44,448 nucleotides of DNA from an uncultured Actinomycetota bacterium. GTDB taxonomy: Bacteria; Actinomycetota; Geothermincolia; Geothermincolales; RBG-13-55-18. Numbering within the stretch: position 1 is the stretch's first letter; each line of letters begins with the position of its first letter. This document shows, piece after piece, positions 6,860 to 43,462 of this stretch. Under the pieces are notes generated by a model. It was not told where the DNA came from and made no database searches. It was given only the letters and a program-made list of their open reading frames with translations. Both the position numbers and the translations under genes were made by a program. Location of the stretch: contig CAYPZH010000003.1 in assembly GCA_964415205.1 (NCBI GenBank), positions 1,736 to 46,183 of the forward strand. The letters are read 5' to 3'.

Positions 6860-6862
6860 GGT

Positions 6863-14685: not shown

Positions 14686-14727
14686 CTCCCCGGCGATAGA
14701 GCAAGCGGCAAGTGTCTCATATAATGC

Positions 14728-17425: not shown

Positions 17426-17603
17426 ATTCTGCCCGCAGCGTCCCCCACATTCAAGCCCCGGAAATCACTGGCCGGAACGGCGGTGGCCTCCACCGCCTCG
17501 CCGTGAGAAGCGGCCGCCCCGCCCGATTTTGGCCCTTTGGCCCGCGGCTTTTCCCGGGGAGCGGGCGCGGCGCGGGACCGCTGGACAGCTTCCTCGGTCC
17601 AGG

Positions 17604-17612
17604 TGGTAGAAT
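17604..17612 (+). promoter_or_regulatory. Extended -10 promoter element (TGgTAGAAT)
   Basis: It matches TGnTAnAAT about 90 nt upstream of the ATG at 17701, in the divergent intergenic region. Confidence 0.35.
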
Positions 17613-17700
17613 CATGCATGCCGGTGCGCGGAAAAAGGCCGGGCCGGGCGGCACCGTATACCTGAAGGGCTTTGAAGAGCACAAGGCGGAGAGAGCGATC

Positions 17701-24874: not shown

Positions 24875-24875
24875 C

Positions 24876-25085
24876 GGGTCAGGCTTCTTGCCCTTTTGCA
24901 TTCCACTAAAGACAGCTACCTTCACCTGGGCCGCGTGAATGCAAAATGCAAGACCTGACCCCCAGACAATCAGAGAACGTTGGCCCTGGGAGATCGGGTT
25001 TGCTGTGCCGGTCGGGGATCCATTGATCCAACCTCATTCTTACGTAATGGCGACTGGGGCCAGTATAAATGCTGGCCCCAGTCGC
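24876..25085 (+). repeat. Composite hairpin element, copy A (long imperfect hairpin, conserved linker block, then a perfect 14-bp hairpin)
   Basis: Hairpin 1 spans 24876..24961 (gggtcagg...cctgaccc arms). The conserved block aacgttggccctgggagat is at 24977..24994. Hairpin 2 is gcgactggggccag-tataaatg-ctggccccagtcgc at 25050..25085. The same order and spacing are seen at 42207..42422. Confidence 0.8.
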
Positions 25086-25251
25086 TTACGCGATATGGTC
25101 CACGAAGCTTTGGCCGCAGACCCGCGGGTTATCATGCGGGCATTGCATCTAATGGCGGACAGGGGCCGGTGGATATCCCCACTCCCAACCTATCTATTAG
25201 CATTGAGCACTGGTCGACCTCGCTGAGGAGCGCGGATACGCTGTCGATCTT

Positions 25252-26289
25252 TTAAAGGTTGTCCTCTTTCCAGCGCAGGTAGATGGATTCGATGTCCAGG
25301 GTGGAACGCTTCCCCAGGTATTCGTAACTCGCGTCGAGCCAGCCAGAGGCGGTGCGGTACCCGATGTCGTGCAGGTGTATAAGGAACGCCCATTCCGAGT
25401 TGAGCTTGCTGGAGACGCCCAGTTGCTTGAGTTCGTCTTCGGCGTGGATGCGGTGGAAGAGGACGTCCTTGAACTTCTGCCCTTCGAGGCCGGCGGATGA
25501 GATGAGCTCCTTCAGGACGGCGATGGCCTTTACCTCCTTGATCAGGCTGGAGTTGAAGGTGATCTCGTTGATGCGGTTGAGGATATCCGGTGCCGTACGG
25601 GGGACCTCCTCCCGATAAAGGGGATTGATCTGCACGATGACGATATCGCGGGAGCGGCAGTCGTCCACCAGTGGGAAGAGGGCGGGATTGCCCATGTAGC
25701 CGCCGTCCCAGTAAGCCTCGCCGTCTATCTCCACCGCCTGGAAGGCGAAGGGCAGGCAGGCGTAGGCCATGACCATGTCCGCTGTCATCTCCCGGCGGTG
25801 GAAGACCTTCTGCTTGCCGGTGCGGACGTTGGTGGCCACCACGAAGACCTTGATACCCTCGGCGTGGCGGACGTGCTCGAAGTCCACGAGGGAGGAGACC
25901 AGGTCGCGTAGCGGATTGAGGTTGAAAGGGTTCAACTGGTAGGGAGAGAACATGCGCGACAGGGCATCGAAGAAGATATAACCGGGCGAGAAGTCCAGGG
26001 TCCAGCGCCCGAACAGCATGTCCAGCCAGGTGCGCTTGAGGGGTGATAAAGTCCCTGCCCGGCTGACCCCGGACCAGAACCGCTGCAATGCCTGCCGGGC
26101 TCCTTCCCTGCCGCCGGTGTCGAAGCCGTCGGCCACTACCACCGCGTTCATGGCGCCCGCGCTGGTACCGCATATGCCCTCGATCTCGATGCGGTCGTCC
26201 TCCAGCAGGCGGTCCAGCTCGCCCCAGGTGAACGCCCCGTGCGCCCCGCCCCCCTGCAGGGCCAGGTCAATTCTCTTCGGTTTCGCCAT
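25252..26289 (-). CDS. Patatin-like phospholipase
   Basis: LALQGGGAHGAF oxyanion motif, GTSAG nucleophile elbow (GxSxG), and the catalytic Asp context in WDGGYMGNPA; 345 aa. Confidence 0.9.
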   Translation of the reverse strand: MAKPKRIDLALQGGGAHGAFTWGELDRLLEDDRIEIEGICGTSAGAMNAVVVADGFDTGGREGARQALQRFWSGVSRAGTLSPLKRTWLDMLFGRWTLDFSPGYIFFDALSRMFSPYQLNPFNLNPLRDLVSSLVDFEHVRHAEGIKVFVVATNVRTGKQKVFHRREMTADMVMAYACLPFAFQAVEIDGEAYWDGGYMGNPALFPLVDDCRSRDIVIVQINPLYREEVPRTAPDILNRINEITFNSSLIKEVKAIAVLKELISSAGLEGQKFKDVLFHRIHAEDELKQLGVSSKLNSEWAFLIHLHDIGYRTASGWLDASYEYLGKRSTLDIESIYLRWKEDNL

Positions 26290-26440
26290 GGTTCCACCTC
26301 ACCGTCTCTCTGAATGCATTACCGGTCGATGAAAATATTCTTCCCATGATGCGTTGGATATGATGGGGTAAGTGTATATGGGTGGGTTATTATATTGATT
26401 GATGGTTGCACGCACGCTCGCCGGAAGAAGAGGTCTACGC

Positions 26441-27463
26441 ATGGAGGGCACTGGTTTCAGGGCGGTTGACTGGCGGGACGGCAGGGTGATCCTGCTGGAC
26501 CAGACGCGCCTTCCGGGCGAGGAGGTCTACCTGGAGTTGGCGGACTGGCGGGAGGTGGCGGAGGCCATCTCCACCATGAAGGTGCGCGGGGCACCGGCCA
26601 TCGGCATTGCCGCCGCCTACGGCGTGGTGCTGGCGGCGCAGGCGGGTGGTGGAGCGGAAGAGTTCGCGCATGCCTGCGACGGACTGGCCCGCACGCGCCC
26701 CACCGCCGTCAACCTCTCTTGGGCCGTGGAGCGCATGCGCGCCCTGGCCGCGGAGGCCGACCCCGCCGCGCTCGCCGGCGAGCTGCTCGCGGAGGCCGGC
26801 CGCATCGCGGCGGAACAGGACGCCGCCGACCGCGCCATCGGAGAGCTGGGAGCCGGCCTGCTGCCCGAAGGGTGCCGCGTCCTCACCCACTGCAACGCCG
26901 GAGGGCTCGCCACCTGGTCCTACGGCACCGCCCTGGGGGTGATCAAGGCCGCCTATGCGCGGGGGAAGATCGCCCACGTGTGGGTGGATGAGACGCGGCC
27001 GCTGTTGCAGGGAGCCCGCCTCACTGCGTGGGAGCTGCAGCGCGAGGGTGTGCCCTTCTCGGTCATCTGCGATAACATGGCCGGGCACCTCATGTCCCTG
27101 GGCGAGGTGGACGCGGTGGTCACCGGCGCGGACCGCATCGCCGCTAACGGCGACAGCGCCAACAAGATCGGCACCTACTCCCTGGCGGTGCTGGCCGCCC
27201 ACCACCGCCTGCCCTTCTATGTCGCCGCGCCCATGTCCACGCTAGACACAGGCGCCGCGGACGGCTCCGTCATCCCCATCGAGGAGAGAGACGCCGCCGA
27301 GGTGACGTCGTGCGGGGGGACGGCAACGGCCCCTGTGGGGGCGGCGGCGCGCAATTTCGCCTTCGACGTCACGCCCGCTGAGCTGATATCGGCTATTATT
27401 ACGGAAAGAGGGGTGGCACGCCCGCCCTACGGTCCCGCGCTGCGAGGGATGAAGGAGGCTTGA
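26441..27463 (+). CDS. mtnA: S-methyl-5-thioribose-1-phosphate isomerase (eIF-2B alpha/beta/delta-like family)
   Basis: [31 protein letters not shown] and [18 protein letters not shown] motifs. The start is set at [11 protein letters not shown]. Confidence 0.88.
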
Positions 27464-27466
27464 GAG

Positions 27467-28597
27467 GTGAAGGCGATGATCCTGGCCGCCGGCCTGGGCA
27501 CGCGCCTGCGTCCCCTCACCGAGGAGATATCCAAGCCCATGGTCCCCATCGTCAACCGTCCGGTGATGGAGCATATCGTCGACCTCCTCGCCCGCCACGG
27601 TTTCGACCAGCTTTATGTCAACCTGCACTACCACCCCGATGTCATCACACGGCACTTCGGCAGCGGCGACCGCTGGGGGGTCTCTATCTTCTACTCTTAC
27701 GAGGAAGAGCTGCTGGGCACGGCGGGCGGGGTGAAGAAGCTGCAGGGGGAACTGGGCGATGACACCTTCCTGGTCATCAGCGGAGACGCCCTCACCGACC
27801 TCGACCTCACCGCCCTCTTCGCGTTCCACAAGGCGCACGGACAGCCGGCCACCCTGGTCGTCACCCCGGTCAACGACCCCTCCAAGTACGGCGTGGTCAT
27901 CACCGAGGAGGACGGCCGCATCACCGGCTTCCAGGAGAAGCCCAGCCGCGAGGAGGCGCTGAGCTTCGTCGCCAACAGCGGCATCTACGTCTTCGAGCCC
28001 GGGGTGCTGGAGATGATACCACCCGGTTTCTACGACTTCGGTTCCCAGCTCTTTCCCCGCTTCCTCGCGGAGGGCATCGCGTTCTACGGCTACCGCCACG
28101 GGGATTACTGGAACGACGTGGGCAGCATGGAGGAGTACAAGGCGGGCAATTTCGATGCCCTCACCGGCAAGGTGAAGGTCAGGATACCGGGCGTGCGCAT
28201 AGGCGACGATGTGTGGATAGGGGACGAGACGGTGATTGAGGAGGAAGTGATCATGGTGGGGCCCCTGTGCGTCGGCGCCAACTGCGAGGTGAGGAAGGGC
28301 GCCAGGCTCTTCGGGCCGCTGGTGGTGGGGGACCGCACCATCATCGACGAGGGGGCCATCCTCTACCGCGGCATCAAGTGGGGGGACGGGTACATCGGCA
28401 AGGACGCCCACCTCCTCGACTCCATCGTGGGCTGGGAGGCGGAGATAGGCAACGGCGCCGCCCTGCTCGCCGACACGGTGGTGGGGCACCGCGCGGTCAT
28501 CGGCGAGGGCAGCATCATCCACCCCAGCGTGAGCATCATGCCCGGCTCGGTGATCGAGAAGAACCACCACTTCAAGGGGGAACCCGGGGACGGGTAA
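27467..28597 (+). CDS. Sugar-1-phosphate nucleotidyltransferase with a C-terminal left-handed beta-helix (specificity unknown)
   Basis: ILAAGLGTRLRPLTEEISKPMVP, LGTAGG and a hexapeptide-repeat C-terminus. It starts 4 nt after the mtnA stop. It is a paralog of the manC-like gene at 21402. Confidence 0.85.
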   Translation: MKAMILAAGLGTRLRPLTEEISKPMVPIVNRPVMEHIVDLLARHGFDQLYVNLHYHPDVITRHFGSGDRWGVSIFYSYEEELLGTAGGVKKLQGELGDDTFLVISGDALTDLDLTALFAFHKAHGQPATLVVTPVNDPSKYGVVITEEDGRITGFQEKPSREEALSFVANSGIYVFEPGVLEMIPPGFYDFGSQLFPRFLAEGIAFYGYRHGDYWNDVGSMEEYKAGNFDALTGKVKVRIPGVRIGDDVWIGDETVIEEEVIMVGPLCVGANCEVRKGARLFGPLVVGDRTIIDEGAILYRGIKWGDGYIGKDAHLLDSIVGWEAEIGNGAALLADTVVGHRAVIGEGSIIHPSVSIMPGSVIEKNHHFKGEPGDG

Positions 28598-32476: not shown

Positions 32477-33493
32477 TTGGAGCCCGATATCAGCGTAGTG
32501 GCGCTCAACTACAATACCAGGGATCTGTTGCGGGCCTGCCTGTACTCCGTGCTGGAGTGCACGGGTGAGCTCGAGCTCGAGCTCATCGTGGTGGACAACG
32601 CCTCCCGGGATGGGTCGGCGCTCATGGTCGGAGAAGAGTTCCCTGACGTTAAGCTGATCGCTAACGACCGCAACCTGGGTTACGCGCGCGGGACGAACGC
32701 GGGTATCAGGGCGTCCTCCGCACCCTACGTGCTGTTGCTGAAACCGGAAACGGTGGTCTCTGGCCGCGCCCTCCGGCTCATGCGCGACTATCTCGAAGCG
32801 CACCCGGAGGTCGCGATGGTGGGGCCCAGGCTGGTGGACGGGGACGGAGTGCATCAACAGAGCTGCCATTATTTCACCGTGCTCGCCTGGAAACACGCCC
32901 TGCGTTACCTGCTCGTCCTCCTGGGCGGCCCCGGATCGAGCGTCTTCGGGCTCTCCACCGATCCGGGCGACAAAGGCAATGGCCCCGTGGAGGTGGACTG
33001 GGTCTACGGTGCCTGTGCGCTGGTGCGCAGGGAAGTGCTGGATGATGTGGGCATGCTGGACGAGAACATCTTCCTGTACGGGGAGGACATGGACCTGTGC
33101 TTCAGGATGGCCAGAGCGGGATGGAAGACCGTCTACCTGCCCCAGGCGGAGATCATCCATTACGGCAACCAATCCTGCAAACATGTATATGGAGAGACGC
33201 GCAGCCTCAGGAGGGCCAGAGCCCGTATAGAAGTGATAGATTATTTCCAGCGCAAGCATTTCGGCGCTGCTCATTCGTATATCATAAGGGCTCTCATGTG
33301 CGGGGGCTCCCTGGCGGCGGCGGCGTCTCTGGGCTCGTTGTACCTTTTCGGCGGCAGGGACCCCGACACCGGCGCCAGGAGCGTCTACGCGGCGAAGGTC
33401 GCCGTCGCCTGTCTCGAGAGCATGCTGTTCAAGCCGGGCGCACCTAGGGCTGCCGTGGAGGGAAGGTCATATATATGCGGGCGCTGGTCATGA
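32477..33493 (+). CDS. Glycosyltransferase family 2 (WbbL-like)
   Basis: TTG start. ISVVALNYNTRDLLRACL...VVDNASRDGS...NLGYARGTNAG...GEDMDLCFR motifs are present. Confidence 0.88.
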   Translation: MEPDISVVALNYNTRDLLRACLYSVLECTGELELELIVVDNASRDGSALMVGEEFPDVKLIANDRNLGYARGTNAGIRASSAPYVLLLKPETVVSGRALRLMRDYLEAHPEVAMVGPRLVDGDGVHQQSCHYFTVLAWKHALRYLLVLLGGPGSSVFGLSTDPGDKGNGPVEVDWVYGACALVRREVLDDVGMLDENIFLYGEDMDLCFRMARAGWKTVYLPQAEIIHYGNQSCKHVYGETRSLRRARARIEVIDYFQRKHFGAAHSYIIRALMCGGSLAAAASLGSLYLFGGRDPDTGARSVYAAKVAVACLESMLFKPGAPRAAVEGRSYICGRWS

Positions 33494-34176
33494 TCCTCGC
33501 CCACAACGAGGAGAACAGCATAGGCGATGTCATCGCCGAGGTGCGGTCCGGCGTGCAGGCCGACGTGCTGGTGGTGGACGACGGCAGCGACGACAATACG
33601 CGGGAAAAAGCGCTGGAGGCCGGAGCGCGATGCGTGTCCCTCGCCTTCAACGCGGGCATAGGGGTTGCGGAGCAGACCGGCTTCCAGGTGGCGGACAATG
33701 AAGGCTATGACCTCGTGGTCAGGATGGACGGAGACGGTCAGCACGATCCCGCGGGCGTCCCGCTCTTCATAGCCTCCCTGAACGAGGGCCGGGCAGACCT
33801 CGTCATCGGAAGCCGCTATCTCTACGGCCGCGGCGGCGAGGGCTTAAACATAAGGGTCATCGGCAACCGCTTCCTGTCCTGGCTGGTCAGCCAGCTCACT
33901 GACTACTGCATCACCGACGCCACCTGTGGGTTCCGGGGATACGCCCGCCCGGCCATCGAGGCCTTCGCCGACGATTACCCGGATGACTTCCCGGAAGTGG
34001 AGGCGCTGATGATGTGCCACCACAGGGGTTTCAGGGTCGAGGAGATATCCATCGATTCACTGCGGCGCCAGAGCGGGGAATCGGTCATCAATGCGGGCGT
34101 CGCCGTGTACTACATGTGCAAGGTCACCCTGGCCGTGGCCATAAGCGGCCTTAGGAAGAGACGACAGGCGGGATAG
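33475..34176 (+). CDS. Glycosyltransferase family 2, polyprenol-phosphate sugar synthase-like
   Basis: VMILAHNEENSIGDVI...VVDDGSDDNT...RMDGDGQHDP motifs. It overlaps the upstream gene by 19 nt. Confidence 0.85.
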   Translation: MRALVMILAHNEENSIGDVIAEVRSGVQADVLVVDDGSDDNTREKALEAGARCVSLAFNAGIGVAEQTGFQVADNEGYDLVVRMDGDGQHDPAGVPLFIASLNEGRADLVIGSRYLYGRGGEGLNIRVIGNRFLSWLVSQLTDYCITDATCGFRGYARPAIEAFADDYPDDFPEVEALMMCHHRGFRVEEISIDSLRRQSGESVINAGVAVYYMCKVTLAVAISGLRKRRQAG

Positions 34177-34200
34177 CGGGAAGATGGGAGGGAAACCGTC

Positions 34201-34605
34201 TTGAACTGGAACATCACCATTACCGGTATAGTCGTGGGGGTGTTGATGATCGCCCTCGTCCTCGAGCTGGTGAGAAGGAGGTCGCTGGGGGAGCGCTACG
34301 CTCTGCTCTGGCTGCTCCTGGCATTGGCCATCATAGTGCTCAGCGCCTGGCCCGCGCTCCTGCAGAGGCTGGCCGACCTGCTGAAGATATACTATCCGCC
34401 CTCGATCATCTTCGGGCTCGCCTTTGTCTTCATCTTCGCCATCATGATACATTTCTCATCGGTCTTGAGCAGGCACGGCAAGGGCTACAACAGGATGGTC
34501 CAGAGGCTCGCGGTCCTGGAGGAGAAAGTGCTGAGCCTGACGGAAGGCGGGTGCGCGGAGGAGAACGGGGATGATGAGGAAGATGTCGACGCCCAGGGCG
34601 GCTGA
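34201..34605 (+). CDS. DUF2304-family small membrane protein
   Basis: TTG start, 134 aa. The layout is TM1, RRR, TM2, an amphipathic segment, TM3 and a C-terminal coiled tail (RLAVLEEKV), matching DUF2304 proteins that typically follow GT2 genes. Confidence 0.65.
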   Translation: MNWNITITGIVVGVLMIALVLELVRRRSLGERYALLWLLLALAIIVLSAWPALLQRLADLLKIYYPPSIIFGLAFVFIFAIMIHFSSVLSRHGKGYNRMVQRLAVLEEKVLSLTEGGCAEENGDDEEDVDAQGG

Positions 34606-36700
34606 TAGCGGAGGCGGACCGCCGGTGAGAGAAAGCGCCTGGCGCAGAGGGGCCAGTGGACTCGACCCCTATACCGGGGCACTGCTGGCGCTCATCCTGG
34701 TGATGTGCATCCTGTACACGGCCTTTTTCTTCGGAGCGGACCTGCCCTTCCGCAAGGCCAGTGCCGACACCTTCCCCCACATGGGCCTGCTGCGCACGGT
34801 CGAGGACCGCATGGGGCTGGGCGAGGAACTCGACCCGGACTTGATCCCCGGTCTCTACAGCGGGAACGAGCGCAGCGGCATCAACTACGTGGCCATGGCG
34901 CTCATCGCCTCCCTGCCCGGAGCGTCCAGCTTCACCGCGCTGTATATCCTCGGCCTGTTCGGCATCGCCGTGTTCCTCTCGGGCATCTTCATCCTCGCCC
35001 GCACCCTCTCCGGTTCCTGCCGCGTTGCCTTCCTGGCGGCCGTTTTCTCCCTCGTCCTGTGCAGTACAGAAGCGGTGGTCAGGGGCAGCTCCTTCTCTTT
35101 CGTGGAGGTCCTGGCCTGCGCCCATTATGCTTCCGTTGTGTCCATCGGGCTGATGATGCTGGCCCTCTCCCTAAACATCCGCTACCTGGCGGAGGGGGAC
35201 TGGAGACATTACATCCTGCAACTCGTGCTGGCGGCGCTCGCCTTCAACATCCATCTGCTCACCGGCATTATGTACTTCCTCGTCCTGCTCATACTGGTGG
35301 CCGTCAACGCCGCCTGGGACAGGCGCCTCTCCCGCCGCCACCTCCTGCTTTTGTCGCTTATCCCCGCCACACTCCTTCTCGTCTCCCTGTGGCCCCTCTA
35401 CCACTGGTGGGTGATCCTCAAGGAGGGGGACGTGGTGCTTGAGGGGCCTTACAAGTACTACTCCACGTTCGACTTCGTCTTCCAGTCCTCGGTCATCTTC
35501 TTCATCGGGCTCCCCTTCCTGTTCAAGAAGGAGCGCGGGAGGGTTTTCCTGCTCGCCTGGACGCTCATCTTCGCGCTCATCTCCGTGTCCTTCCTTTTGC
35601 CGCTGAGCGTGGCCTTCCACTGGAGGTTCGCGTTCGTGGTGCGCGTACCCCTGGTGATCGGCCTGGCCATGGGGGTGGGCTTGGACATCTGGAGGCTTCG
35701 TCGCTGGAGGGCTTTCGCCATCCCCGTGATCCTGGGTATCGTCGGGGTGTTCGTCGTCGCCTCGATGGTCATAAACGTGCAGCGGTTCAAAAAGGTCATG
35801 CACGGCAACGACCTCGAGGCGGTGGAGGAGTTCGCCGATTCGGGGGAGGGGGGCATGAACCTGGTGGCCCAGCCGAAGCAGGGGTGCGTTCTGATGGGCA
35901 TATCCGACTACAGCGTATATTCGGTCCCGACGGCGCGCGACGAGAGGAACGAGCGCCTGCTGGAGCTGTACTATACGCCCGTTATGGGGGAATGGGAGGG
36001 GTTCCTGCGGGAATACGGGTTCCAGCGGGTGCTGGTTAACCGCTCGCCTTCCCTTGCCGGCACGGCGCTGCTGCTGAACGGCACGCTATTGGAGAGGAAC
36101 GAGGGTTTCGACCTCTACGGCGTGGACCCGGATGCCCTGGACACGGAGATCGTCCAGAGAATAAAGGACCGCAAGCTCGAGCGGAGCGAGACCGCCGGAG
36201 GCTTTTTCCGCTTCGACGACTGGGCTTACTTCCAGCAGGCCGGAAAGGGCATGATCGGCATCGAGCGGGCGGAGGGGGACGGCGAGACGGGCGAGCCATA
36301 TATGCTTTTCAGCTCGGACGCTCCGGGCGGGGAACTCGTCCTCGCCAACCGCGGCTATATCGAGGTGGACCCAAACGTGCGCTACAGGATCGATGTAGAT
36401 TATCGCATGCCGCCGGAGGCGGGGCGGTTATACCTGCTCCTCTACCAGTACAGCGAGGCCTCCCCCGAGGGAGAGGTCGCGTACGAAAGAAAGAAGGTCT
36501 TCGGGGAGCCCGGGGCATGGACGCAGAGGAGGTTCATCGTGGGTCCGGGGAGCGACCCCAGGGCGAGATTCGTTCTCAGCGAAGAGACCAGGTACGTGAA
36601 GATAGGCTTGCTGGTTTGTTTCGAATCCGCAGGTCAGATGGGCCTGCGCCTGCTGAATTTCTCGTCCGCAAGGGTGGCTCTAGACCGGGAAAACCCGTAA
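34571..36700 (+). CDS. Large polytopic membrane protein with a C-terminal beta-sandwich/CBM-like domain (GT-C-like candidate)
   Basis: 709 aa. More than 10 TM helices are followed by a about 270-aa soluble domain. It overlaps the DUF2304 gene by 35 nt. The start is uncertain. Confidence 0.55.
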   Translation: MMRKMSTPRAADSGGGPPVRESAWRRGASGLDPYTGALLALILVMCILYTAFFFGADLPFRKASADTFPHMGLLRTVEDRMGLGEELDPDLIPGLYSGNERSGINYVAMALIASLPGASSFTALYILGLFGIAVFLSGIFILARTLSGSCRVAFLAAVFSLVLCSTEAVVRGSSFSFVEVLACAHYASVVSIGLMMLALSLNIRYLAEGDWRHYILQLVLAALAFNIHLLTGIMYFLVLLILVAVNAAWDRRLSRRHLLLLSLIPATLLLVSLWPLYHWWVILKEGDVVLEGPYKYYSTFDFVFQSSVIFFIGLPFLFKKERGRVFLLAWTLIFALISVSFLLPLSVAFHWRFAFVVRVPLVIGLAMGVGLDIWRLRRWRAFAIPVILGIVGVFVVASMVINVQRFKKVMHGNDLEAVEEFADSGEGGMNLVAQPKQGCVLMGISDYSVYSVPTARDERNERLLELYYTPVMGEWEGFLREYGFQRVLVNRSPSLAGTALLLNGTLLERNEGFDLYGVDPDALDTEIVQRIKDRKLERSETAGGFFRFDDWAYFQQAGKGMIGIERAEGDGETGEPYMLFSSDAPGGELVLANRGYIEVDPNVRYRIDVDYRMPPEAGRLYLLLYQYSEASPEGEVAYERKKVFGEPGAWTQRRFIVGPGSDPRARFVLSEETRYVKIGLLVCFESAGQMGLRLLNFSSARVALDRENP

Positions 36701-36794
36701 GGCCATATGGCGGGACCCACCCGGCCTTGAGGCCGCGCGACCTCGCGCCGCCCGTGAGGCAGGCTGTATTTACCGCTCTCTCCGCGATGGCCGT

Positions 36795-37622
36795 TCAGAA
36801 GTAGAGTACCTCCCGTAAGGGCTGAAAATCGAAGGCATCCAGGAGCTTTCCCAGTTTGTCCAGGGCCTTCCCGACCCCGTAGAAGAGGGCGAACCGCGAC
36901 AGCGGGTCGATGCCCGCGGGGATATCGCTCAGGGGGCGGATATCGCGGGGGTGGATATAGATGACCGCCGGCCTTTCCTCCAGGACCTTGCGCAAGAGAA
37001 AGACTACCAGCCACATGGGCTCAAACCTCAGGTAAACCCCACCGCACAAGGGGATACTCACGAGCCGTCCGCGGTAGACGGTCAAGGGGAATTCCACCAG
37101 GCTTCCCCCGCCGGAGGTCCCTTCACCGTGCGGCGTATAAGGAGCGAGCGGAGCGCCGGGACAGCCGTACAGGGGCGTGCGCATGGGGAATACGCTGGAA
37201 CTGTAGCGGTAACCCAGGTCCTTTTCCAGCGTGTGGTGGAGCCAGGGCGTATCGTGCCCGGCCGAGCAATTGGCGGCGCGGAAACCAAGCGGCCTCTCGC
37301 CGCAGATAGAGGCGAGGATTTCGACGGTCTTGCTCTCGCTGCGGATGAACTCCCCGCGCGTGGTCTCACGCAGGTTCTTGTGCTCGTACCCGTGGGACCC
37401 TATCTCGTGGCCTGCGGCGCAGATCTTCTCCACCAGCCCGGGGTCCCGCTCGGCCAGCGAGCCGAGGACGAAAAAGGTCGCGCGCGCGTTCTTCTCTTCC
37501 AGGAGAGCGAGCAGGTCACCGACGGCGGGCGTCACAATATCCTCGTGGCCCTCGTAGTCTTTCCGGGGCAGGTCTCCGGCCCACCACGGCTCGACGTCTA
37601 CGCTGAGAGCTATCCCGTGCAT
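36795..37622 (-). CDS. Polysaccharide deacetylase (CE4/NodB) with a DUF3473-like C-terminus
   Basis: SVDVEPWW, ATFFVLGSLAE and GHEIGSHGYEH metal-binding motifs; 275 aa. Confidence 0.85.
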   Translation of the reverse strand: MHGIALSVDVEPWWAGDLPRKDYEGHEDIVTPAVGDLLALLEEKNARATFFVLGSLAERDPGLVEKICAAGHEIGSHGYEHKNLRETTRGEFIRSESKTVEILASICGERPLGFRAANCSAGHDTPWLHHTLEKDLGYRYSSSVFPMRTPLYGCPGAPLAPYTPHGEGTSGGGSLVEFPLTVYRGRLVSIPLCGGVYLRFEPMWLVVFLLRKVLEERPAVIYIHPRDIRPLSDIPAGIDPLSRFALFYGVGKALDKLGKLLDAFDFQPLREVLYF

Positions 37623-37740: not shown

Positions 37741-38697
37741 TCAGACGAAAACCTCCGCGAGCGCCCAGGCGATGACCACCGAGATCAAGGGCGCCACCGC
37801 CCATACCACGGCCGCCCTGCGCGCGGCGGGATTGCGCAGCATGAAGGCGTGGCCGTTCTTGACCACGCCGATGGCGAAGATGGCCCCCAGCTTGATCTGC
37901 ACCTCCGAGGCGGGCATACCGAGCCCGCTGGCCAGGAGCAGGAGGGAGGCGCCCACGAGACTCACCAGGGTGGCGCTGAGCACGCCCAGGGGGCTGATCT
38001 CCTTGCCCGCCGTCTCCAGGTTGCCGAAGCCCAGGGCGGCCGCGCCCATGCCGAAAAACGGGGCCAGGAAAAGGGTGGCGGTCAGGGCACCGGCGACGCT
38101 CGCCCCCGCCAGCGGGCCCGATGCGTTGGCCACGTTGTTCGACCCTATGGAGAAGGCGGCGTAACAGGAAGAGGCGATGACGAACGTCTGCAACAGGCGG
38201 TAACGGCGCATGACGTTCTGTGCCAGGACGTAATGGCGCAGGCGCGGATACAGCCACTTGCCCAGCACCAGGGTGATGACATAGGCGGCGAGGGGCAGGA
38301 TGAACCACAAGGGGACCATCAGCCTGAAGGAGGAACCGCTGAGCCTGCCCACGGATATGCCCACTCCCACCAGTGACCCCACCGTTACCTGGCTCGTGGA
38401 TTGGGGGATCTTGAGAAGGTTGGCGAGAAAAAGGGTGATGGTGGCCGAGGTGATGACGACCAGAGCGACCTTCACGTCGGTGTAGCTGGCGGGGATGATG
38501 TCGTGCGAGATGGTCTCCGCGACCCTGCCCCCGGCCACCACCGCCCCCAGGAGTACGAAGAGAGAGAAAAAGGCGACCGCCTGAAAGCGGTTGAGGAAGC
38601 CTGCCCCGTAGGAAGCGGCCATGGAGGGCGCGAAGCCGCTGGCGCCCATATTCATGGCGAAGAAGGAGACGAGGATGACGAGCAATGCCGTCTGCAC
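37741..38697 (-). CDS. cysP: PiT-family anion permease, CysP-like (probable sulfate permease)
   Basis: AMNMGASGFAPSMAASYGAG and SIGSNNVANASGPL are the duplicated PHO4/PiT signature in the divergent CysP-like form. It is divergently adjacent to sat, as in the B. subtilis cysP-sat-cysC arrangement. The substrate call is inferred. Confidence 0.6.
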   Translation of the reverse strand: MQTALLVILVSFFAMNMGASGFAPSMAASYGAGFLNRFQAVAFFSLFVLLGAVVAGGRVAETISHDIIPASYTDVKVALVVITSATITLFLANLLKIPQSTSQVTVGSLVGVGISVGRLSGSSFRLMVPLWFILPLAAYVITLVLGKWLYPRLRHYVLAQNVMRRYRLLQTFVIASSCYAAFSIGSNNVANASGPLAGASVAGALTATLFLAPFFGMGAAALGFGNLETAGKEISPLGVLSATLVSLVGASLLLLASGLGMPASEVQIKLGAIFAIGVVKNGHAFMLRNPAARRAAVVWAVAPLISVVIAWALAEVFV

Positions 38698-38832
38698 CCG
38701 GGTCCTACCTCCTCCCGCCGGGAAAAAGTCCTCAAAGGAGAGGACCTACCTCCTGGCCCTGTGGTTTATACTCGAAAAACCGAGCGGCAGTTCACTTTGC
38801 GGTGGTAAAAACTGCGCGCGCAACGAGCCGGT

Positions 38833-38861
38833 TTCAATGATTAGATATAATAATATATAAT
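38833..38861 (+). promoter_or_regulatory. Promoter-like AT island (TTCAAT-17-TATAAT) in the divergent cysP / RHH-sat intergenic region
   Basis: gattagatataataatatataatt is the most AT-rich stretch of the window and lies 40-70 nt upstream of the ATG at 38900. Confidence 0.4.
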
Positions 38862-38899
38862 TAGCCGGAATTGAACGAAAGGTCGGGTGTCAGAGAAAG

Positions 38900-39133
38900 A
38901 TGAAGAAGAAAGAGCAGGAGAGCAAGTTCACCTCGGTCTCCATCCCTACCCCACTCTTCGAGAAGGTAAGGAAGCGCATCGAGGGGACCGGTTTCACCTC
39001 CGTGTCCAGCTACGTAGTGTACGTGCTGCGCGAGGTACTCGCGGAGGACGCGGTGGATGAAAAAGAGGCCTTCTCCCGGGAAGACGAGGAGAGGGTAAAG
39101 GAACGTCTGCGCTCCCTGGGGTACCTGGACTGA
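38900..39133 (+). CDS. Ribbon-helix-helix (CopG/Arc/MetJ-type) DNA-binding protein
   Basis: 77 aa. FTSVSIPTPLFEKVRKRI (beta-strand plus helix A) and SVSSYVVYVLREVL (helix B). It ends 10 nt before sat. Confidence 0.65.
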   Translation: MKKKEQESKFTSVSIPTPLFEKVRKRIEGTGFTSVSSYVVYVLREVLAEDAVDEKEAFSREDEERVKERLRSLGYLD

Positions 39134-39143
39134 GGAGGAGACG

Positions 39144-40286
39144 ATGCCGTTGCCGCACGGCGGTCGCCTGGTCGACCGCATGATCCCTGACGCGGACAGG
39201 GAGGAAGCCGTGGCGGAAGCCCGCGGCCTGAAGAGCCTGCGCCTGGACACGGAGCAGGCCCGCGAGGTGGAGAACATCGCCCAGGGGATCTACAGCCCCA
39301 TCGGGGGATTCCTGCGACGGGAGGAATACGCGAGCGTGCTCGAGCACGCTCGCCTCCCGGGCGACGTGCCCTGGGCCTTACCGATCGTGCTGGACCTCCC
39401 GCCGGACAGCGGGGTAGAAGAGGGAGACCGGCTGGCTTTGTGGGAGACGGATGACGGGCCCCTGGCGGTGATGGAGGTGGAGGAGATGTATCCCCTCGAC
39501 CGCGCCCGCCACGACACGCTCGTCTACGGCACCGAAGATATCTCACACCCCGGGGTGGCCAAGACCGCGGCCATGGGGGACCTTCTGGCGGGCGGACCCA
39601 TCACCCTGCTGCGGCTGACGCCAAGCCCCTTCGAGAGGTACCGGCTTAGCCCGCGCGAGACCAGGGTGCTCTTCCGCGAACTGGGCTGGAGGCAGGTGGT
39701 GGGCTTCCAGACGCGCAACGTCCCCCACCTCGGCCACGAGTATGTGCAGAAGACCGCCCTCACCTTCGCCGACGGGCTGTTCATCAACCCGGTCATCGGC
39801 AAGAAGAAGAAGGGTGATTTCACCGACGAGGCCATCCTGGCCACCTACCAGACCCTCATCGACAACTACTACCTCAAGGAGAGGTCGGTCATGGCCATCC
39901 TGCAGTACGAGATGCGCTACGCGGGTCCGCGCGAGGCCATACACCATGCCATTATGCGCAAGAACTTCGGCTGCACCCACTTCATCGTGGGAAGGGACCA
40001 TGCCGGGGTGGGCGATTTCTACCACCCCTTCGCCGCTCAGGAGATATTCGGCGAGTTCCCTGACCTCGGCATCGTGCCGGTGTTCTTCAACACCTTCTCT
40101 TACTGCCTGCGCTGCGGCGGGGTGGTCAACGAGAAGATCTGCCCCCATGGCCCCGAGGACCAGGTGGGTTTCTCCGGCACCCGCATGCGGGAGCTCATCA
40201 TGGAGGGCAAGGTGCCCCCGCCGGAGATGCTACGGCCGGAGGTTGCCGAGGTGCTCCTGGCCATCAGCGACCCCTTCGTGGAGTGA
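39144..40286 (+). CDS. sat: Sulfate adenylyltransferase (ATP sulfurylase)
   Basis: QTRNVPHLGHEY and GRDHAGVG motifs; the 380-aa length is typical of homo-oligomeric Sat. Confidence 0.93.
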   Translation: MPLPHGGRLVDRMIPDADREEAVAEARGLKSLRLDTEQAREVENIAQGIYSPIGGFLRREEYASVLEHARLPGDVPWALPIVLDLPPDSGVEEGDRLALWETDDGPLAVMEVEEMYPLDRARHDTLVYGTEDISHPGVAKTAAMGDLLAGGPITLLRLTPSPFERYRLSPRETRVLFRELGWRQVVGFQTRNVPHLGHEYVQKTALTFADGLFINPVIGKKKKGDFTDEAILATYQTLIDNYYLKERSVMAILQYEMRYAGPREAIHHAIMRKNFGCTHFIVGRDHAGVGDFYHPFAAQEIFGEFPDLGIVPVFFNTFSYCLRCGGVVNEKICPHGPEDQVGFSGTRMRELIMEGKVPPPEMLRPEVAEVLLAISDPFVE

Positions 40287-40289
40287 GCC

Positions 40290-41648
40290 ATGGCCGGCGG
40301 CAAGAGGCTTGTCATCATCGGGCTGGACTGCGCATCGCCGCGCCTGCTCTTCCACGCCTATCCGGGCATGCTGCCCAACCTGGAAAGGCTGTGCGAGAAC
40401 GGCTGGTGGGGGGAGGTGGAATCGTGCATCCCCCCCATCACCGTGCCCGCATGGATGGTCATGTTCACCGGGAGGGAGCCGGGGGAGTTGGGCATGTACG
40501 GCTTCCGCAACCGCGTGCCGGGCACCTACAACGATACCAGGGTGGCGGACTCCACTTCGCGGCACGTCCCCGCCCTGTGGGACAAGGCCGGCGAGGCGGG
40601 GCTGCGCAGCTGCCTCATGGGAGTCCCCCCTTCCTACCCGCCCTTCGAGGTGAAGGGCGATCTCATCTCCTGTTTCCTCACCCCCGGCACCGACCGGCCG
40701 TACACCTTTCCGCGCGGCCTGGCGGTGGAGCTGGAGGAGCAGGAGTTGATCTACGTGCCGGACGTTCCCTTCCGCAAGGAGAATAAAGCCGATATCCTGG
40801 CGAGCCTGCGCGAGATGACCGCGGGGCACTTCGAGATAGCCTGTTACCTTGCGGAGGAGCATCCCTGGGACCTCTTCGTCATGGTCGAGATAGGCCTGGA
40901 CCGCGTCCAGCACGCCTTCTGGAGGTATCAGGACCCCACCCACCACCTCTACGAGGCCGGCACGCCTTACACCCACGCCCTGCGCGACTATTACCGCCTG
41001 CTGGACCAGGGCATCGGGGATCTGCTGCAGGCCTGCGGCCCCGATACGTCCGTGGCCGTGGTTTCCGACCACGGCGCCAAGGGCATGAAGGGCGCCTTCT
41101 GCGTGAATCAGTGGCTGGCGGAACATGGTTACCTCACCCTGAGGGATGAGGTGGAGCGGGGCACCAGGCTGGAGGACGCCCCGGTGGACTGGTCCAGGAC
41201 GAAGGCCTGGGGCTGGGGAGGTTATTACGCCCGCGTATTCCTTAACGTCGAGGGGAGGGAGCCGCAGGGGGTGATCCCTGCGCGGGACTTCGAGGCCGAG
41301 GTAAAGAAGCTGGCGGAGGAGATACGGGGCATCAGGGGACCGCAGGGCGAAGAGTGGGCGACGCGCGCGGTGACGCCCGGCGAGACCTACAGGCATGCCG
41401 AGGGGGACGTTCCCGACCTCATGGTGTTCTTCGACGACCTTTCCTGGAGGGCGGCGGGTACCATGGGCCACCCCTCCATGTACCTGGAGGAGAACGACAC
41501 CGGGCCGGACGACGCAGTGCACGACTGGAGAGGTGTGGGCATATTCTACCATCCCCACGAGGACATGCGCGAGAAGATCGACCGGGACTTCCTCCGCATA
41601 CAGGAGCTGTACGGGATCTACGGAGAGATGCTGGGTATCGAGGTGTGA
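40290..41648 (+). CDS. Alkaline-phosphatase-superfamily protein, type I phosphodiesterase/nucleotide pyrophosphatase-like (paralog 3), cytoplasmic
   Basis: LVIIGLDCASP, IPPITVPAWMVMFTGREPG and VVSDHGAKG motifs align with paralogs 1 and 2. There is no signal peptide. It starts 3 nt after the sat stop and ends 21 nt before cysC. Confidence 0.8.
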   Translation: MAGGKRLVIIGLDCASPRLLFHAYPGMLPNLERLCENGWWGEVESCIPPITVPAWMVMFTGREPGELGMYGFRNRVPGTYNDTRVADSTSRHVPALWDKAGEAGLRSCLMGVPPSYPPFEVKGDLISCFLTPGTDRPYTFPRGLAVELEEQELIYVPDVPFRKENKADILASLREMTAGHFEIACYLAEEHPWDLFVMVEIGLDRVQHAFWRYQDPTHHLYEAGTPYTHALRDYYRLLDQGIGDLLQACGPDTSVAVVSDHGAKGMKGAFCVNQWLAEHGYLTLRDEVERGTRLEDAPVDWSRTKAWGWGGYYARVFLNVEGREPQGVIPARDFEAEVKKLAEEIRGIRGPQGEEWATRAVTPGETYRHAEGDVPDLMVFFDDLSWRAAGTMGHPSMYLEENDTGPDDAVHDWRGVGIFYHPHEDMREKIDRDFLRIQELYGIYGEMLGIEV

Positions 41649-41669
41649 TCTATCAACGGAGGTAAGCAT

Positions 41670-42206
41670 ATGGAGAAGGGATTCGTGGTCTGGCTCACCG
41701 GCCTTCCGGCTTCGGGAAAGACCACCGTGGCCGTGGACCTGGAGAAGAGGCTGCGCGATAGGGGCCTGCGGGTGGAGGTCATGGACGGCGACGAGGTGAG
41801 AAAAGGTCTCAGCCGGGACCTCGGCTTCAGCAAGGAGGACCGGGAGATACACGCCATGCGCGTCGCTTACGTGAGCAAGCTGCTCTCACGCAACGGCGTG
41901 GCGGTGATCGTGGCCCTCATCTCCCCCTACCGCTCTTTCCGCGCGGCCATAAGAAAGGATATCGACGACTTCATCGAGGTCTTCGTGCGCTGCCCGGTGG
42001 AGGAATGCGCCAAGCGCGACCCCAAGGGCCTCTACGCCAAAGCCCTGGCAGGCGAGATCAAGGATTTCACCGGCGTGGATGACCCCTACGAGGACCCGGA
42101 GAACCCCGAACTGGTCCTGGACACCTACGCCGAGGAGACCTCCGAGAGCGTGAACAAGGTCCTGGACTGGCTTTCGGTGCACGGGTATCTCGACGGTTCA
42201 TCTTGA
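41670..42206 (+). CDS. cysC: Adenylylsulfate (APS) kinase
   Basis: P-loop WLTGLPASGKTTVA, DGDEVRKGL, and the ALISPYR motif; 178 aa. Confidence 0.93.
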   Translation: MEKGFVVWLTGLPASGKTTVAVDLEKRLRDRGLRVEVMDGDEVRKGLSRDLGFSKEDREIHAMRVAYVSKLLSRNGVAVIVALISPYRSFRAAIRKDIDDFIEVFVRCPVEECAKRDPKGLYAKALAGEIKDFTGVDDPYEDPENPELVLDTYAEETSESVNKVLDWLSVHGYLDGSS

Positions 42207-42422
42207 CAGTAAGGGGTCAGGTCTTGTTTTTTGGATACCACGGTATTTTGCCTGTTGGCACATGCGGTTTTGCAGCACGAAACAAAGACCTGACCCCTTA
42301 CTGTCTTATAAACGTCGGCCCTGGAAGATGTGCGTGTCTCAGGCGATAGGTATGGCCATGCATCGTGACGAAGGTCCGAGGTAATGGCGACTGGGGCCAG
42401 CATAAATGCTGGCCCCAATGGC
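42207..42422 (+). repeat. Composite hairpin element, copy B
   Basis: Hairpin 1 spans 42207..42303 (cagtaaggggtcaggtctt...aagacctgaccccttactg). The conserved block aacgtcggccctggaagat is at 42311..42329. The 37-nt block gtaatggcgactggggccagcataaatgctggcccca is at 42381..42417 and differs by one base from 25044..25080. Confidence 0.8.
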
Positions 42423-42479: not shown

Positions 42480-42860
42480 AACCAGAAGGCTTCGGCCCGG
42501 GTCTGTGGTTGAAAGTCGATGCCAGCCGCAGGCGAAGCGACCCACGTAAGCCAACTCTTGGTTGGTGAGCATGGTGCGGCTTAGGGGTAAGACCTGCCCG
42601 GCTTTAAAGCCGGAGAAGCGCATTAGTGGCGTACGGGCGAAGTCCCCAGAGGATCCCGTGAGCTGCGAGACGCTCAGCAGGCGAGTGTGGGGTAAAAGAC
42701 CAGGTCAGCCGGGTTTCGAAGCCTTCTACTATAGGAGGCCAGCCCTGGCCCTTTTGTTGGCGGGGGGCTGAACGTATGCTAGGCTTATGCGAGTCGAGCG
42801 TGAAAGCGCCGGGTTAAGGCCCGGGGCCGGTAGTTACCGTCATAAAGGTCCTGAACAAGG
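42480..42860 (+). ncRNA. Candidate structured ncRNA upstream of hpf (raiA-motif-like); boundaries approximate
   Basis: There is no credible ORF here. A TATAAT lies at 42472..42477. Local helices are dense: ggc-UUCG-gcc at 42488..42497, ccaac/gttgg at 42551..42565, and ccggc-tttaaa-gccgg at 42598..42613. An intrinsic terminator follows. Its position directly upstream of hpf/raiA matches the known genomic context of the raiA motif RNA. The consensus could not be checked by eye. Confidence 0.4.
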
Positions 42861-42894
42861 CCCATACCGCACCTGAACCTGGTATGGGCTTTTT
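42861..42894 (+). terminator. Intrinsic terminator (cccatacc-N12-ggtatggg-cttttt)
   Basis: An 8-bp GC-rich stem followed by a T-run, 25 nt upstream of the hpf start and before its AAGGAGGGGA RBS. Confidence 0.6.
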
Positions 42895-42919
42895 AGCGGA
42901 AAGGAGGGGAGCGGGCGCG

Positions 42920-43462
42920 ATGCAGATCATCGTCAAGGGCAAGAACCTGGAGGTCACGGAGGCGCTGCGCAAATATGCTCTGGAAAAGGTCGGCAGGGTC
43001 GAGAAATACCTGGACAACATCCAGAAGACGGAGATAGAGATGAGCGTGGAAAGAAACCCGAAGATACAGGAGAACCAGGTTGTGGAGGTTACCATATTCT
43101 CGAGCGGGCCTATAATCAGGGCCAAGGAGTCGGCCGTTGACATGTACCAGGCCATCGACATGGTCATGAACAAACTGGAGCGGCAGGCGCGCAGGGTCAA
43201 GACGAAGATGATCCATCGCTCGCATCATGCCAGGAACCCCTTCAAGGGATCGGCCTTGAGCGAGGAGGAGAAGCCGGAAGAGCCGATGATCGTGAAGACC
43301 AAGAGCTTTCCCCTCAAGCCCATGACCCCCGAGGAGGCCTGCCTGCAGATGGACCTTCTGGGCCATGACTTCTTCGTTTTCATCAACGCCGAGACGGAGG
43401 ATACCAACGTGGTTTATAGAAGAAAAGATGGGGACTACGGCTTGATCGAGCCGGGAGGATGA
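42920..43462 (+). CDS. hpf: Ribosome hibernation promoting factor, long form (HPF/RaiA family)
   Basis: MQIIVKGKNLEVTEALRKYALEKV...YLD N-terminal S30AE domain plus a C-terminal dimerisation domain (PMTPEEACLQMDLLGHDFFVFINAET...VVYRRKDGDYGLIEP). The ATG is preceded by AAGGAGG. Confidence 0.92.
   Translation: MQIIVKGKNLEVTEALRKYALEKVGRVEKYLDNIQKTEIEMSVERNPKIQENQVVEVTIFSSGPIIRAKESAVDMYQAIDMVMNKLERQARRVKTKMIHRSHHARNPFKGSALSEEEKPEEPMIVKTKSFPLKPMTPEEACLQMDLLGHDFFVFINAETEDTNVVYRRKDGDYGLIEPGG

Follow-up and report, generated by a model that had tools for sequence, protein, structure and literature searches.

Sulfotransferases built on an alkaline phosphatase (AP)-like core have been described in the archaeon Halobacterium salinarum, in which deletion and heterologous expression identified Agl30 (VNG1056C) and Agl31 (VNG1057C) as the N-glycan sulfotransferases for 3-sulfated iduronic acid (IdoA-3S) and 2-sulfated glucuronic acid (GlcA-2S) (Zaretsky et al. 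2025, PMC11980604). Both are encoded in a glycan cluster, act on the cytoplasmic side and sulfate lipid-linked sugars, including uronic acids, and both are unlike the canonical sulfotransferases that use 3'-phosphoadenosine 5'-phosphosulfate (PAPS). They are the closest precedent for the gene studied here, termed X, which was found in a 44,448-nucleotide (nt) stretch of DNA, called the window, from an uncultured Actinomycetota bacterium (GCA_964415205.1, contig CAYPZH010000003.1, positions 1,736 to 46,183 of the forward strand). X encodes an AP-superfamily protein and lies between sat and cysC, the genes for ATP sulfurylase and adenosine 5'-phosphosulfate (APS) kinase. Judging from this context, we propose, with a probability of about one half, that X is a PAPS-consuming sulfotransferase with AP-type chemistry. 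In contrast to X, no linkage of Agl30 or Agl31 to sat or cysC has been reported, and their donor and mechanism are not defined (PMC11980604).

Several other described systems share features with X. The nucleotide pyrophosphatases/phosphodiesterases (NPPs), represented by ENPP1/3/5 and a Xanthomonas NPP, together with PhnA, have the same Pfam family and fold, and their Asp/Thr and Asp-His motifs align with those of X. X differs from the NPPs in being cytoplasmic, in having invariant blocks of its own and in its fixed genomic partnership with PAPS synthesis; we know of no characterised NPP with such a partnership. LtaS, EptA/MCR-1 and the glycosylphosphatidylinositol (GPI) ethanolamine-phosphate transferases (PF01663) likewise use a metal-dependent AP core, in which a Thr or Ser nucleophile accepts a charged group from an activated donor and hands it on to a glycan or lipid. 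These enzymes also belong to envelope-biogenesis loci, but are membrane anchored and extracytoplasmic and take phospho-alcohols from phospholipids, whereas X is soluble, cytoplasmic and linked to PAPS. With regard to gene order, the PAPS operon of Methanothermococcus thermolithotrophicus encodes an ATP sulfurylase, an APS kinase, a PAPS reductase and a DHH-type phosphatase of 3'-phosphoadenosine 5'-phosphate (PAP) (PMC10322725). It resembles archaeal relatives of the window locus in clustering Sat, CysC and a gene of the MtPAPP type; however, PAPS is consumed there by an APS-reductase-like PAPS reductase serving assimilation, whereas the locus described here has X in that slot and glycan genes around it. 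Finally, Agl7 (HVO_2046) of Haloferax volcanii is required for the sulfation of a dolichol-phosphate hexose (PMC3892788). The protein family of Agl7 is not established in the main texts, and homology to X is a lead only. A reading of the window made from its sequence alone (the sequence-only reading) had known of no characterised sat-NPP-cysC module. Among the papers searched there was indeed no description of such a module, of any NPP-like gene in sat/cysC clusters or of the function of COG3379, but AP-superfamily glycan sulfotransferases do exist in the sulfatase-like branch, namely, Agl30 and Agl31 (PMC11980604).

The sat-X-cysC cassette and its conservation

The genes of the cassette and the divergent permease gene are as follows.

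37741-38697, minus strand: PiT/CysP-like permease, divergent from the sat-X-cysC operon (PF01384 and NF053884 matches)
38900-39133, plus strand: small open reading frame (ORF) of 77 amino acids (aa), the cassette leader, with a possible ribbon-helix-helix (RHH) fold, an acidic linker and a C-terminal tail
39071-39130, plus strand: C-terminal tail of the small protein, FSREDEERVKERLRSLGYLD
39144-40286, plus strand: sat, homo-oligomeric ATP sulfurylase (PF14306 (PUA_2) and PF01747, NF003166)
40290-41648, plus strand: X, cytoplasmic AP-superfamily enzyme (PF01663/COG3379), proposed PAPS-consuming sulfotransferase
41670-42206, plus strand: cysC, APS kinase (PF01583, TIGR00455)

This layout, a permease divergent from a packed operon, was as the sequence-only reading had drawn it, with ORFs at each of its coordinates and intergenic gaps of 10 nt (small ORF/sat), 3 nt (sat/X) and 21 nt (X/cysC). 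Family scans confirmed four of its five labels, those of sat, cysC, X and the permease: the sat product scored 483.5 bits against NF003166 (cut-off, 387), and that of cysC matched PF01583 (E 6e-62) and TIGR00455 (225.5 bits; cut-off, 138.7). The fifth label, an RHH regulator, is left with a weak NCBIfam match of the small protein to the N-terminal RHH region of NikR (E 6e-4; 19.9 bits, far below the cut-off), whereas no Pfam RHH match was obtained even at E up to 5, and no PDB profile match. Bacterial and archaeal versions of the small protein share 52-71% identity. With an RHH fold, it might act as a repressor of the operon.

Orthologs of X were present in at least 581 genomes when one genome per species was scanned. 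Locus counts given here for X rest on the best 80 loci of these at least 581, all from different species and with X proteins 44-56% identical. Relatives more than 50% identical to X were encoded in Acidobacteriota/Aminicenantes, Bathyarchaeota, Asgard archaea and metagenome-assembled genomes (MAGs) of Actinobacteria. Among the best 80, the archaeal carriers were Bathyarchaeia, Thermoplasmata, Archaeoglobi, Nitrososphaeria, Thermoprotei, Hadarchaeota, Methanomethylicota, Micrarchaeota and Nanobdellati, as well as Asgard archaea of the Promethearchaeota/Heimdall/Hod/Hermod/Jord lineages; the bacterial carriers were Aminicenantes, Omnitrophota, Latescibacterota, Armatimonadota and Binataceae. On the same strand and within a few kilobases (kb) of X, these loci encoded CysC (68/80), Sat (56/80) and the small protein (58/80), and Sat or CysC adjoined X in 73 of the 80 species, so that the linkage singled out in the sequence-only reading holds widely. 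Where sufficient flank was available (n = 58), CysC was found in 51 loci, Sat in 41, and the small protein, Sat and CysC together in 35. The order small protein-Sat-X-CysC was the commonest (34 loci; median gaps, 21 and 3 nt). A profile search of the wider family returned 4,996 clusters (50% identity) at E<=1e-30 and 18,498 at E<=1e-3. The best explanation of the region is that it represents a four-gene cassette that is conserved and has spread horizontally, usually with a sulfate permease alongside and, in many archaea, a PAP phosphatase. The module is real, widespread and undescribed.

It is very unlikely indeed that these loci perform ordinary assimilatory sulfate activation, with a PAPS reductase encoded elsewhere and X as an incidental neighbour. 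Genes for Sat, CysC and a sulfate permease do belong to the usual assimilation set, and the search for cysH was confined to the window and sampled flanks. Within this range, none of the 31 window ORFs matched a Sulfotransfer_* or PAPS_reduct family in Pfam; clustering of the neighbours in the 80 loci yielded no cysH, PAPS reductase or Sulfotransfer_* gene; and the sampled flanks of relatives, including the loci L088 and L090, held no cysH, sir or canonical sulfotransferase gene. The sequence-only reading had seen no reductase or known sulfotransferase, and beyond cysC in the close relative L088 there was no cysH or canonical sulfotransferase either, that flank holding MFS, hpf, HD, HD, SecA and RF-2 genes. 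An incidental neighbour is also hard to square with same-strand adjacency of this frequency across two domains and with several gene fusions. Furthermore, the cassette is embedded in glycan loci, and it occurs in DPANN-type, Asgard and Archaeoglobaceae MAGs, of which Archaeoglobus already makes sulfide.

The fusions join X to CysC in both orders (X-CysC, P0111 at locus L007; CysC-X, P0265), to Sat (Sat-X, P0252), to a pyruvate kinase (PK) barrel (X-PK, P0351) and to both of the latter (X-PK barrel-Sat, P0298). X is also fused to glycan enzymes, namely, a family 2 glycosyltransferase (GT2), a sugar nucleotidyltransferase (P0319) and a methyltransferase. The fusions are independent of each other and tie X to the pathway. 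At L173 (7459-11756), an X-PK-Sat triple fusion of 1151 aa is followed by a PHP-family phosphoesterase, and CysC is not encoded within 19 kb; the PK-like domain may serve ATP regeneration or stand in for the APS kinase. Operons without sat were found as well, in the order small protein-PAPP-X-CysC in an Archaeoglobus MAG and an Archaeoglobaceae MAG (L061, L051) and as small protein-X-CysC in Thermoplasmata. X is bound more closely to CysC than to Sat.

The same fusions bear on the strongest rival explanation, in which X is a phosphoanhydride hydrolase acting on pyrophosphate (PPi) or a nucleotide pyrophosphate and pulling the unfavourable Sat reaction, that is, a helper and not a consumer of PAPS. 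Sat (P0252, P0298) and the sugar nucleotidyltransferase (P0319) are both PPi-releasing nucleotidyl transferases, and the fusion to a PK barrel suggests a metabolon for ATP and PAPS supply. Eukaryotic algae have triple fusions of Sat, CysC and an inorganic pyrophosphatase (PPase), and PPi is hydrolysed by tissue-nonspecific alkaline phosphatase. Nonetheless, linkage to CysC exceeds linkage to Sat (68 versus 56 of 80), the archaeal operons just described dispense with sat and keep X and CysC, and X-CysC fusions exist in both orders. In addition, an X-like gene of Natrinema adjoins a separate, annotated inorganic diphosphatase gene, and paralogs of X stand in tailoring-type arrays of glycan and lipid clusters. 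We regard this role of X as unlikely.

Family, fold and active site of X

X matched PF01663 (Phosphodiest) with 152.3 bits against a cut-off of 23, the match spanning profile positions 1-342, and its match to the Pfam family Sulfatase was below threshold (E 0.0089; 15.8 bits against a 25-bit cut-off). These were the searches that the sequence-only reading had named for placing X, along with structure prediction. A weak profile match to the sulfatase 6hhm (E 0.0018) is informative at superfamily level only, and X is not in the sulfatase-like (PF00884/arylsulfatase) subfamily of Agl30 and Agl31. Close relatives are annotated only as "alkaline phosphatase family protein" or as COG3379-type "AlkP superfamily phosphohydrolase/phosphomutase," and NCBIfam has no model for X or for its long paralogs. 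A sequence search of X against PDB chains gave marginal PhnA and NPP matches and no close solved relative. Neither X nor any other scanned ORF of the window matched Sulfotransfer_1/2/3 or Stf0 in Pfam or NCBIfam. X is not homologous to the PAP phosphatases of the DHH (MtPAPP) or PHP type, PF01663 being its only Pfam match, and it has no match to PPase families I and II in Pfam or NCBIfam, a result that bears on membership and not on PPase-like activity.

All sequence features claimed earlier for X were present. The motifs GLDC (residues 11-14), PPITVPAW (48-55), which carries the Thr nucleophile, and SDHG (259-262) were found, with no transmembrane-like segment (maximum KD19, 1.09) and no signal peptide; the N-terminus begins straight at strand beta-1 (MAGGKRLVIIGLDC). 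The secreted or ecto location typical of characterised NPPs is therefore not shared by X. A structure predicted with AlphaFold2 (AF2) from 45 orthologs (pLDDT, 89.9; pTM, 0.90) shows the AP alpha/beta core fold in the model. NPPs and PhnA were nearest in structure: the top Foldseek matches in the PDB were ENPP1/3/5, the Xanthomonas (Xac) NPP and PhnA, with a probability of 1.00 each, E values of 1e-15 to 1e-13, TM-scores of 0.52-0.68 and about 14% identity. Both the fold and the Pfam family are thus those of nucleotide pyrophosphatases/phosphodiesterases, which is what a PPi-removing helper might possess.

Residues D13, T51, D204, H208, D260, H261 and H411 are invariant among the 45 orthologs. 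In alignments, D13/T51 and D260/H261 coincide with the motifs of PhnA and the Xac NPP that hold the metals and the nucleophile, and the invariance of D204, H208 and H411 suggests that they are further ligands of a two-metal site. On this basis, X appears to keep a complete NPP-type two-metal site with a Thr nucleophile. The X clade has, in addition, two invariant blocks of its own, WGWGGYYAR and ENDTGPDDAVH, the latter lying partly in a low-confidence part of the model. It also has many invariant Arg and Lys residues, which would suit a polyanionic ligand such as PAPS.

PAP disposal and the proposed role of X

About 12 of the 80 loci, all archaeal, contain a DHH-family gene inside the operon, mostly between sat and X. 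Its product matches MtPAPP (PDB 8a8k) with an E value of 8e-39, and MtPAPP of M. thermolithotrophicus has been biochemically shown to hydrolyse PAP specifically (PMC10322725). The PHP phosphoesterase encoded after the triple fusion at L173 matches 2yb1/2yb4 and 7ug9 (E 2e-29). The PHP family of 2yb1 and 7ug9 presumably includes the characterised 3',5'-nucleotide bisphosphate phosphatase. Judging from these matches, the cassette thus seems to have acquired enzymes of the PAP-phosphatase type with two unrelated folds. The only source of PAP is the loss of the sulfuryl group from PAPS, to a reductase or to a transferase. The PAP phosphatase genes in these operons therefore suggest that the pathway yields PAP. 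X would then be the PAPS-consuming step, since no conserved gene besides it is left to take this part and AP-fold metalloenzymes do not carry out redox reactions. Were X a PPi-removing helper instead, the step from PAPS to PAP implied by the operon PAP phosphatases would be left without a candidate. Archaeoglobus species are dissimilatory sulfate reducers; because they already make APS and sulfide in bulk, PAPS would have no obvious use in them besides sulfation. The sequence-only reading had suggested that X is an obligatory partner of PAPS metabolism and possibly an unconventional transferase, and this is still the reading with the best support.

A second kind of hydrolase has to be weighed here, one that controls the sulfonucleotide pool: a PAP 3'-phosphatase analogous to CysQ, a PAPS 3'-phosphatase or an APS/PAPS sulfohydrolase. 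AP-superfamily chemistry and the Joint Genome Institute (JGI) name "phosphohydrolase/phosphomutase" would fit such an enzyme, as would the close linkage and fusion to CysC, and the bacterial cassettes, including that of the window, have no other PAP phosphatase gene. However, X would be redundant in the roughly 12 archaeal operons with an MtPAPP-type gene and at L173 with its PHP-type gene. Furthermore, a Thr nucleophile in an NPP-type site generally favours diester or anhydride-like over monoester substrates, and a futile PAPS or APS hydrolase within a synthesis operon, and even fused to its enzymes, is hard to rationalise. We consider a pool-controlling hydrolase quite improbable.

As their family membership shows, Sat converts sulfate, probably imported by the PiT permease, to APS, and CysC converts APS to PAPS. 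If X is the PAPS-consuming sulfotransferase, it would then bind PAPS, pass the sulfuryl group to a sugar acceptor and free PAP, which in the archaeal cassettes would be converted to AMP by PAPP, as homology to the validated enzyme indicates. More speculatively, X might work by a ping-pong reaction with a sulfo-Thr51 intermediate on the two-metal site; LtaS and EptA form phospho-alcohol-Thr intermediates of a comparable kind, and sulfatases form sulfo-enzyme intermediates. A sugar of an envelope glycan, linked to a nucleotide or to polyprenyl phosphate, is the probable acceptor. X is unusually conserved, which suggests that its acceptor is a common one; a uronic-acid nucleotide sugar and a polyprenyl-phosphate hexose are candidates. 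In the window, the long paralogs of X (described below) would be further tailoring enzymes with other acceptor specificities.

Several points weigh against a sulfotransferase role. Every functional step assigned to X is drawn from context. NPP-type enzymes normally attack phosphorus, not sulfur, and attack on the phosphorus of PAPS would just hydrolyse it. The Sat-X and nucleotidyltransferase-X fusions fit a PPi-removing helper equally well. An identity above 50% across domains is unusually high for a glycan-tailoring transferase and suggests a universal small-molecule substrate or a housekeeping-type role. Agl30 and Agl31 belong to the sulfatase-like branch, not to PF01663, and have an undefined donor. 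The searches for a PAPS consumer covered the window and sampled flanks, so a canonical sulfotransferase or cysH may be encoded elsewhere in these genomes. Finally, among 31 loci of the tail-bearing subgroup of long paralogs with a length of at least 10 kb, just 3 had sulfate-activation genes close by; this is roughly twenty-fold over a rough expectation, an enrichment that is far from obligate.

Glycan surroundings, shared tail and flanking signals

As the sequence-only reading had recognised, the window is a glycan locus. It encodes several family 4 glycosyltransferases (GT4) and GT2 enzymes, two Wzx-type flippases, a UDP-glucose dehydrogenase (UGDH), sugar nucleotidyltransferases and a 4,6-dehydratase-type short-chain dehydrogenase/reductase (SDR), together with an S-adenosylhomocysteine (SAH) hydrolase, a methyltransferase and an XrtA-type polysaccharide deacetylase. 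A glycan-cluster setting was also seen at L005, L007, L090 and L173. The commonest extra neighbour of the cassette was a same-strand NAD-dependent sugar epimerase/dehydratase (30/80 loci); in Aminicenantes this SDR, most like UDP-uronate 4-epimerase (TviC-like), is followed by UDP-glucose dehydrogenase, both after cysC. Within the window, the SAH hydrolase, an MtnA/IF-2B-family isomerase and two sugar nucleotidyltransferases lie at 23618-28597 and are syntenic at L088 and L090, which suggests recycling of methyl groups or of a methylthio-sugar linked to glycan methylation.

The operon gene X of the sequence-only reading was confirmed, but X is not the lone member of its family in the window, since two further PF01663 paralogs had been missed. 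They and a group of glycan-modification genes are located as follows.

11321-12973, minus strand: long PF01663 paralog A, 550 aa, within glycan genes and adjoining a GT4 gene
17398-19299, plus strand: long PF01663 paralog B, 633 aa as called, with a PF01663 domain
33475-37622: GtrB-like GT2, DUF2304, a 709-aa protein with 10 transmembrane segments and a polysaccharide deacetylase with DUF3473, likely associated glycan-modification genes
33475-34176: the GtrB-like GT2 of this group

Paralog A is 31% identical to X (PF01663, E 4e-35) and retains the D, T, D-H and D-H residues. Paralog B is 28% identical (PF01663, E 9e-31; domain from residue 110) and retains the catalytic Asp, Thr and His positions; its first ~100 residues form a Gly/Arg/Pro-rich extension that is absent from paralog A and X. 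Because this N-terminal extension (17398-17700) is unshared and the Pfam domain starts at residue 110, the true start of paralog B may lie near 17701 (MEPKSKRLFLVGLDG). The long paralogs diverge fast and carry generic names only.

Long paralogs as obligatory neighbours of X were ruled out, a long paralog being present within 10 kb in 7 of 67 X loci. Where the two do meet, long paralogs lie directly 5' of the small protein gene in the Asgard locus L005 and the X-CysC fusion locus L007, three tandem copies precede X-CysC at L046, and at L090 the cassette occurs together with two long paralogs, a flippase, a GT4, a methyltransferase and a deacetylase. Membrane proteins of ~600 aa encoded beside long paralogs (window 14728-16608; L007 6355-8127) were rejected as a conserved partner, as they are not homologous to each other. 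At L092 (Rokubacteria contig, 1-15738), two tandem long paralogs lie in a cluster with a ketosynthase, a ketoreductase, a second ketosynthase, two acyl carrier proteins (ACPs), an AMP-ligase and a halogenase-like flavin adenine dinucleotide (FAD) enzyme, adjoining a non-homologous sulfate-activation system made up of CysD, a CysN-CysC fusion and an extra APS kinase. This cluster is a candidate pathway for a sulfated, possibly halogenated, lipid.

A metagenome scan covered one subgroup of long paralogs, chosen with tail-bearing sequences. Tandem arrays reached eight copies on one contig (L141), with arrays also at L169. Such expansion is typical of tailoring enzymes, and the wider family behaves as such. 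The commonest recurrent neighbour of the long paralogs was a GtrB-like GT2 (21 loci); others were an LPG_synthase_TM flippase-like protein, DUF2304, deacetylase plus DUF3473, methyltransferase, radical-SAM/SPASM, acetyltransferase and SurE, and this neighbour set is also present at 31-37.6 kb of the window. A GT2 of the DPM1/GtrB-like type makes the polyprenyl-phosphate hexose that is the substrate in the Agl7 system, and one lies at 33475-34176. In the window itself, the GT2, DUF2304 and the 709-aa protein (10 transmembrane segments, no family match) at 33475-36700 resemble a GtrB/GtrA/GT-C-like system for modification with polyprenyl-phosphate sugars. SurE, a 5'/3'-nucleotidase, recurs just 5' of GT2-long paralog pairs at L144, L147, L139 and L154, and might be yet another PAP-removing enzyme.

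Plasmid records that matched X were all haloarchaeal megaplasmids (61/61). The glycan cluster of Halopiger xanaduensis pHALXA01 (L175, 35335-54567) contains two "sulfatase" genes, three GT4 genes, a long paralog, a PAPS-reductase-family gene and a PiT transporter gene followed directly by an X-like gene. It thereby joins genes of the "sulfatase" kind, to which Agl30 and Agl31 are related, with COG3379 genes.

A short C-terminal tail, with the consensus [FY][ST]xE[ED]EEx[VI]KERL[RK]xLGY[ILV][DEG], is shared by several of these proteins. Its GY-anchored form ends 50 of 51 orthologs of the small protein; all GY-anchored tails share L-4, G and Y without exception, nearly all share L-1, and position -5 is mostly R/K. 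Among long paralogs, 11 of 27 diverse ones end in the tail, as do 97 of 102 in the metagenome subgroup, for the choice of which tail-bearing sequences had been used. The tail likewise ends CysC at three loci (L016, L051 and L053), at the first of which the small protein was not detected, stands at the end of the PK-like domain at L173, and is present at L092 and in L093-L172 loci. In contrast, it ended none of 45 X orthologs and never occurred on Sat. In the AF2 model of a tail-bearing long paralog, the tail is a helix of moderate confidence (pLDDT of ~77 and 62 for residues 541-560, and 44 for the final residue), with no sign of intramolecular docking. The tail is probably a portable docking peptide. 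A bolder idea, which we rate as a long shot, is that it is the swinging arm of a sulfuryl relay: X would sulfate the tail Tyr from PAPS, and the resulting protein-bound aryl sulfate would be the donor for sulfatase-like or COG3379 tailoring enzymes. Such a "sulfuryl carrier protein" system would resemble ACP or lipoyl arms. In a milder version, client enzymes would be docked onto an X/Sat hub and PAPS would be channelled to them.

The operon is flanked by the following signals.

38848-38863: AT-rich palindrome TAATAATATATAATTA, found by inverted-repeat search, candidate promoter or operator
42202-42221, plus strand: terminator-like hairpin with T-run, overlapping the cysC stop, found by consensus scan
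42492-42717, plus strand: raiA-motif RNA (Rfam RF03072), 168 bits, full length
42884-43462: hpf/raiA gene, directly 3' of the raiA-motif RNA

The palindrome lies ~40 nt 5' of the small ORF and is kept in a relative with an 81%-identical X; the block ATGAT-TA.AT.TAATAATATATAATT is common to the window and L088 and partly kept at L090. A sigma-70 consensus scan found no site, and the palindrome may be a promoter or an operator. The operon appears to end at cysC, because the terminator-like hairpin lies at the cysC stop and is followed by the raiA RNA ahead of hpf. The raiA motif is typical of Actinomycetota and Bacillota. The permease gene on the other side encodes a protein with 7 transmembrane-like segments that matches PF01384 (PHO4, E 6e-38). 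Among NCBIfam models, it matched best that of the bacterial CysP sulfate permease (NF053884), with a score of 252.8 bits that is below the 400-bit cut-off, and the context of sat and cysC suggests sulfate specificity. A divergent PHO4 gene is also present at L088 and L090, and in other phyla a TauE permease fills the role.

PAPS-dependent glycan sulfation and AP-superfamily sulfotransferases are already known; what is new here is an uncharacterised family, a previously unreported cassette and a shared tail peptide. To our knowledge, archaea and many uncultured bacterial phyla have few canonical sulfotransferases, yet sulfated glycans and lipids are known there, with enzymes that are mostly unidentified. 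The core X clade, whose genes in at least 581 species are tied to those for PAPS synthesis and PAP disposal, gives a concrete candidate for this sulfation. Even as a PPi-removing helper, X would be a new accessory enzyme dedicated to sulfate activation. If it is a sulfotransferase, it would be the third type of fold used in biological sulfation, besides those of the canonical PAPS and the arylsulfate sulfotransferases, would extend the 2025 finding on Agl30 and Agl31 to a second AP branch and to bacteria, and would provide an annotation handle for sulfated envelope glycans in the uncultured majority.

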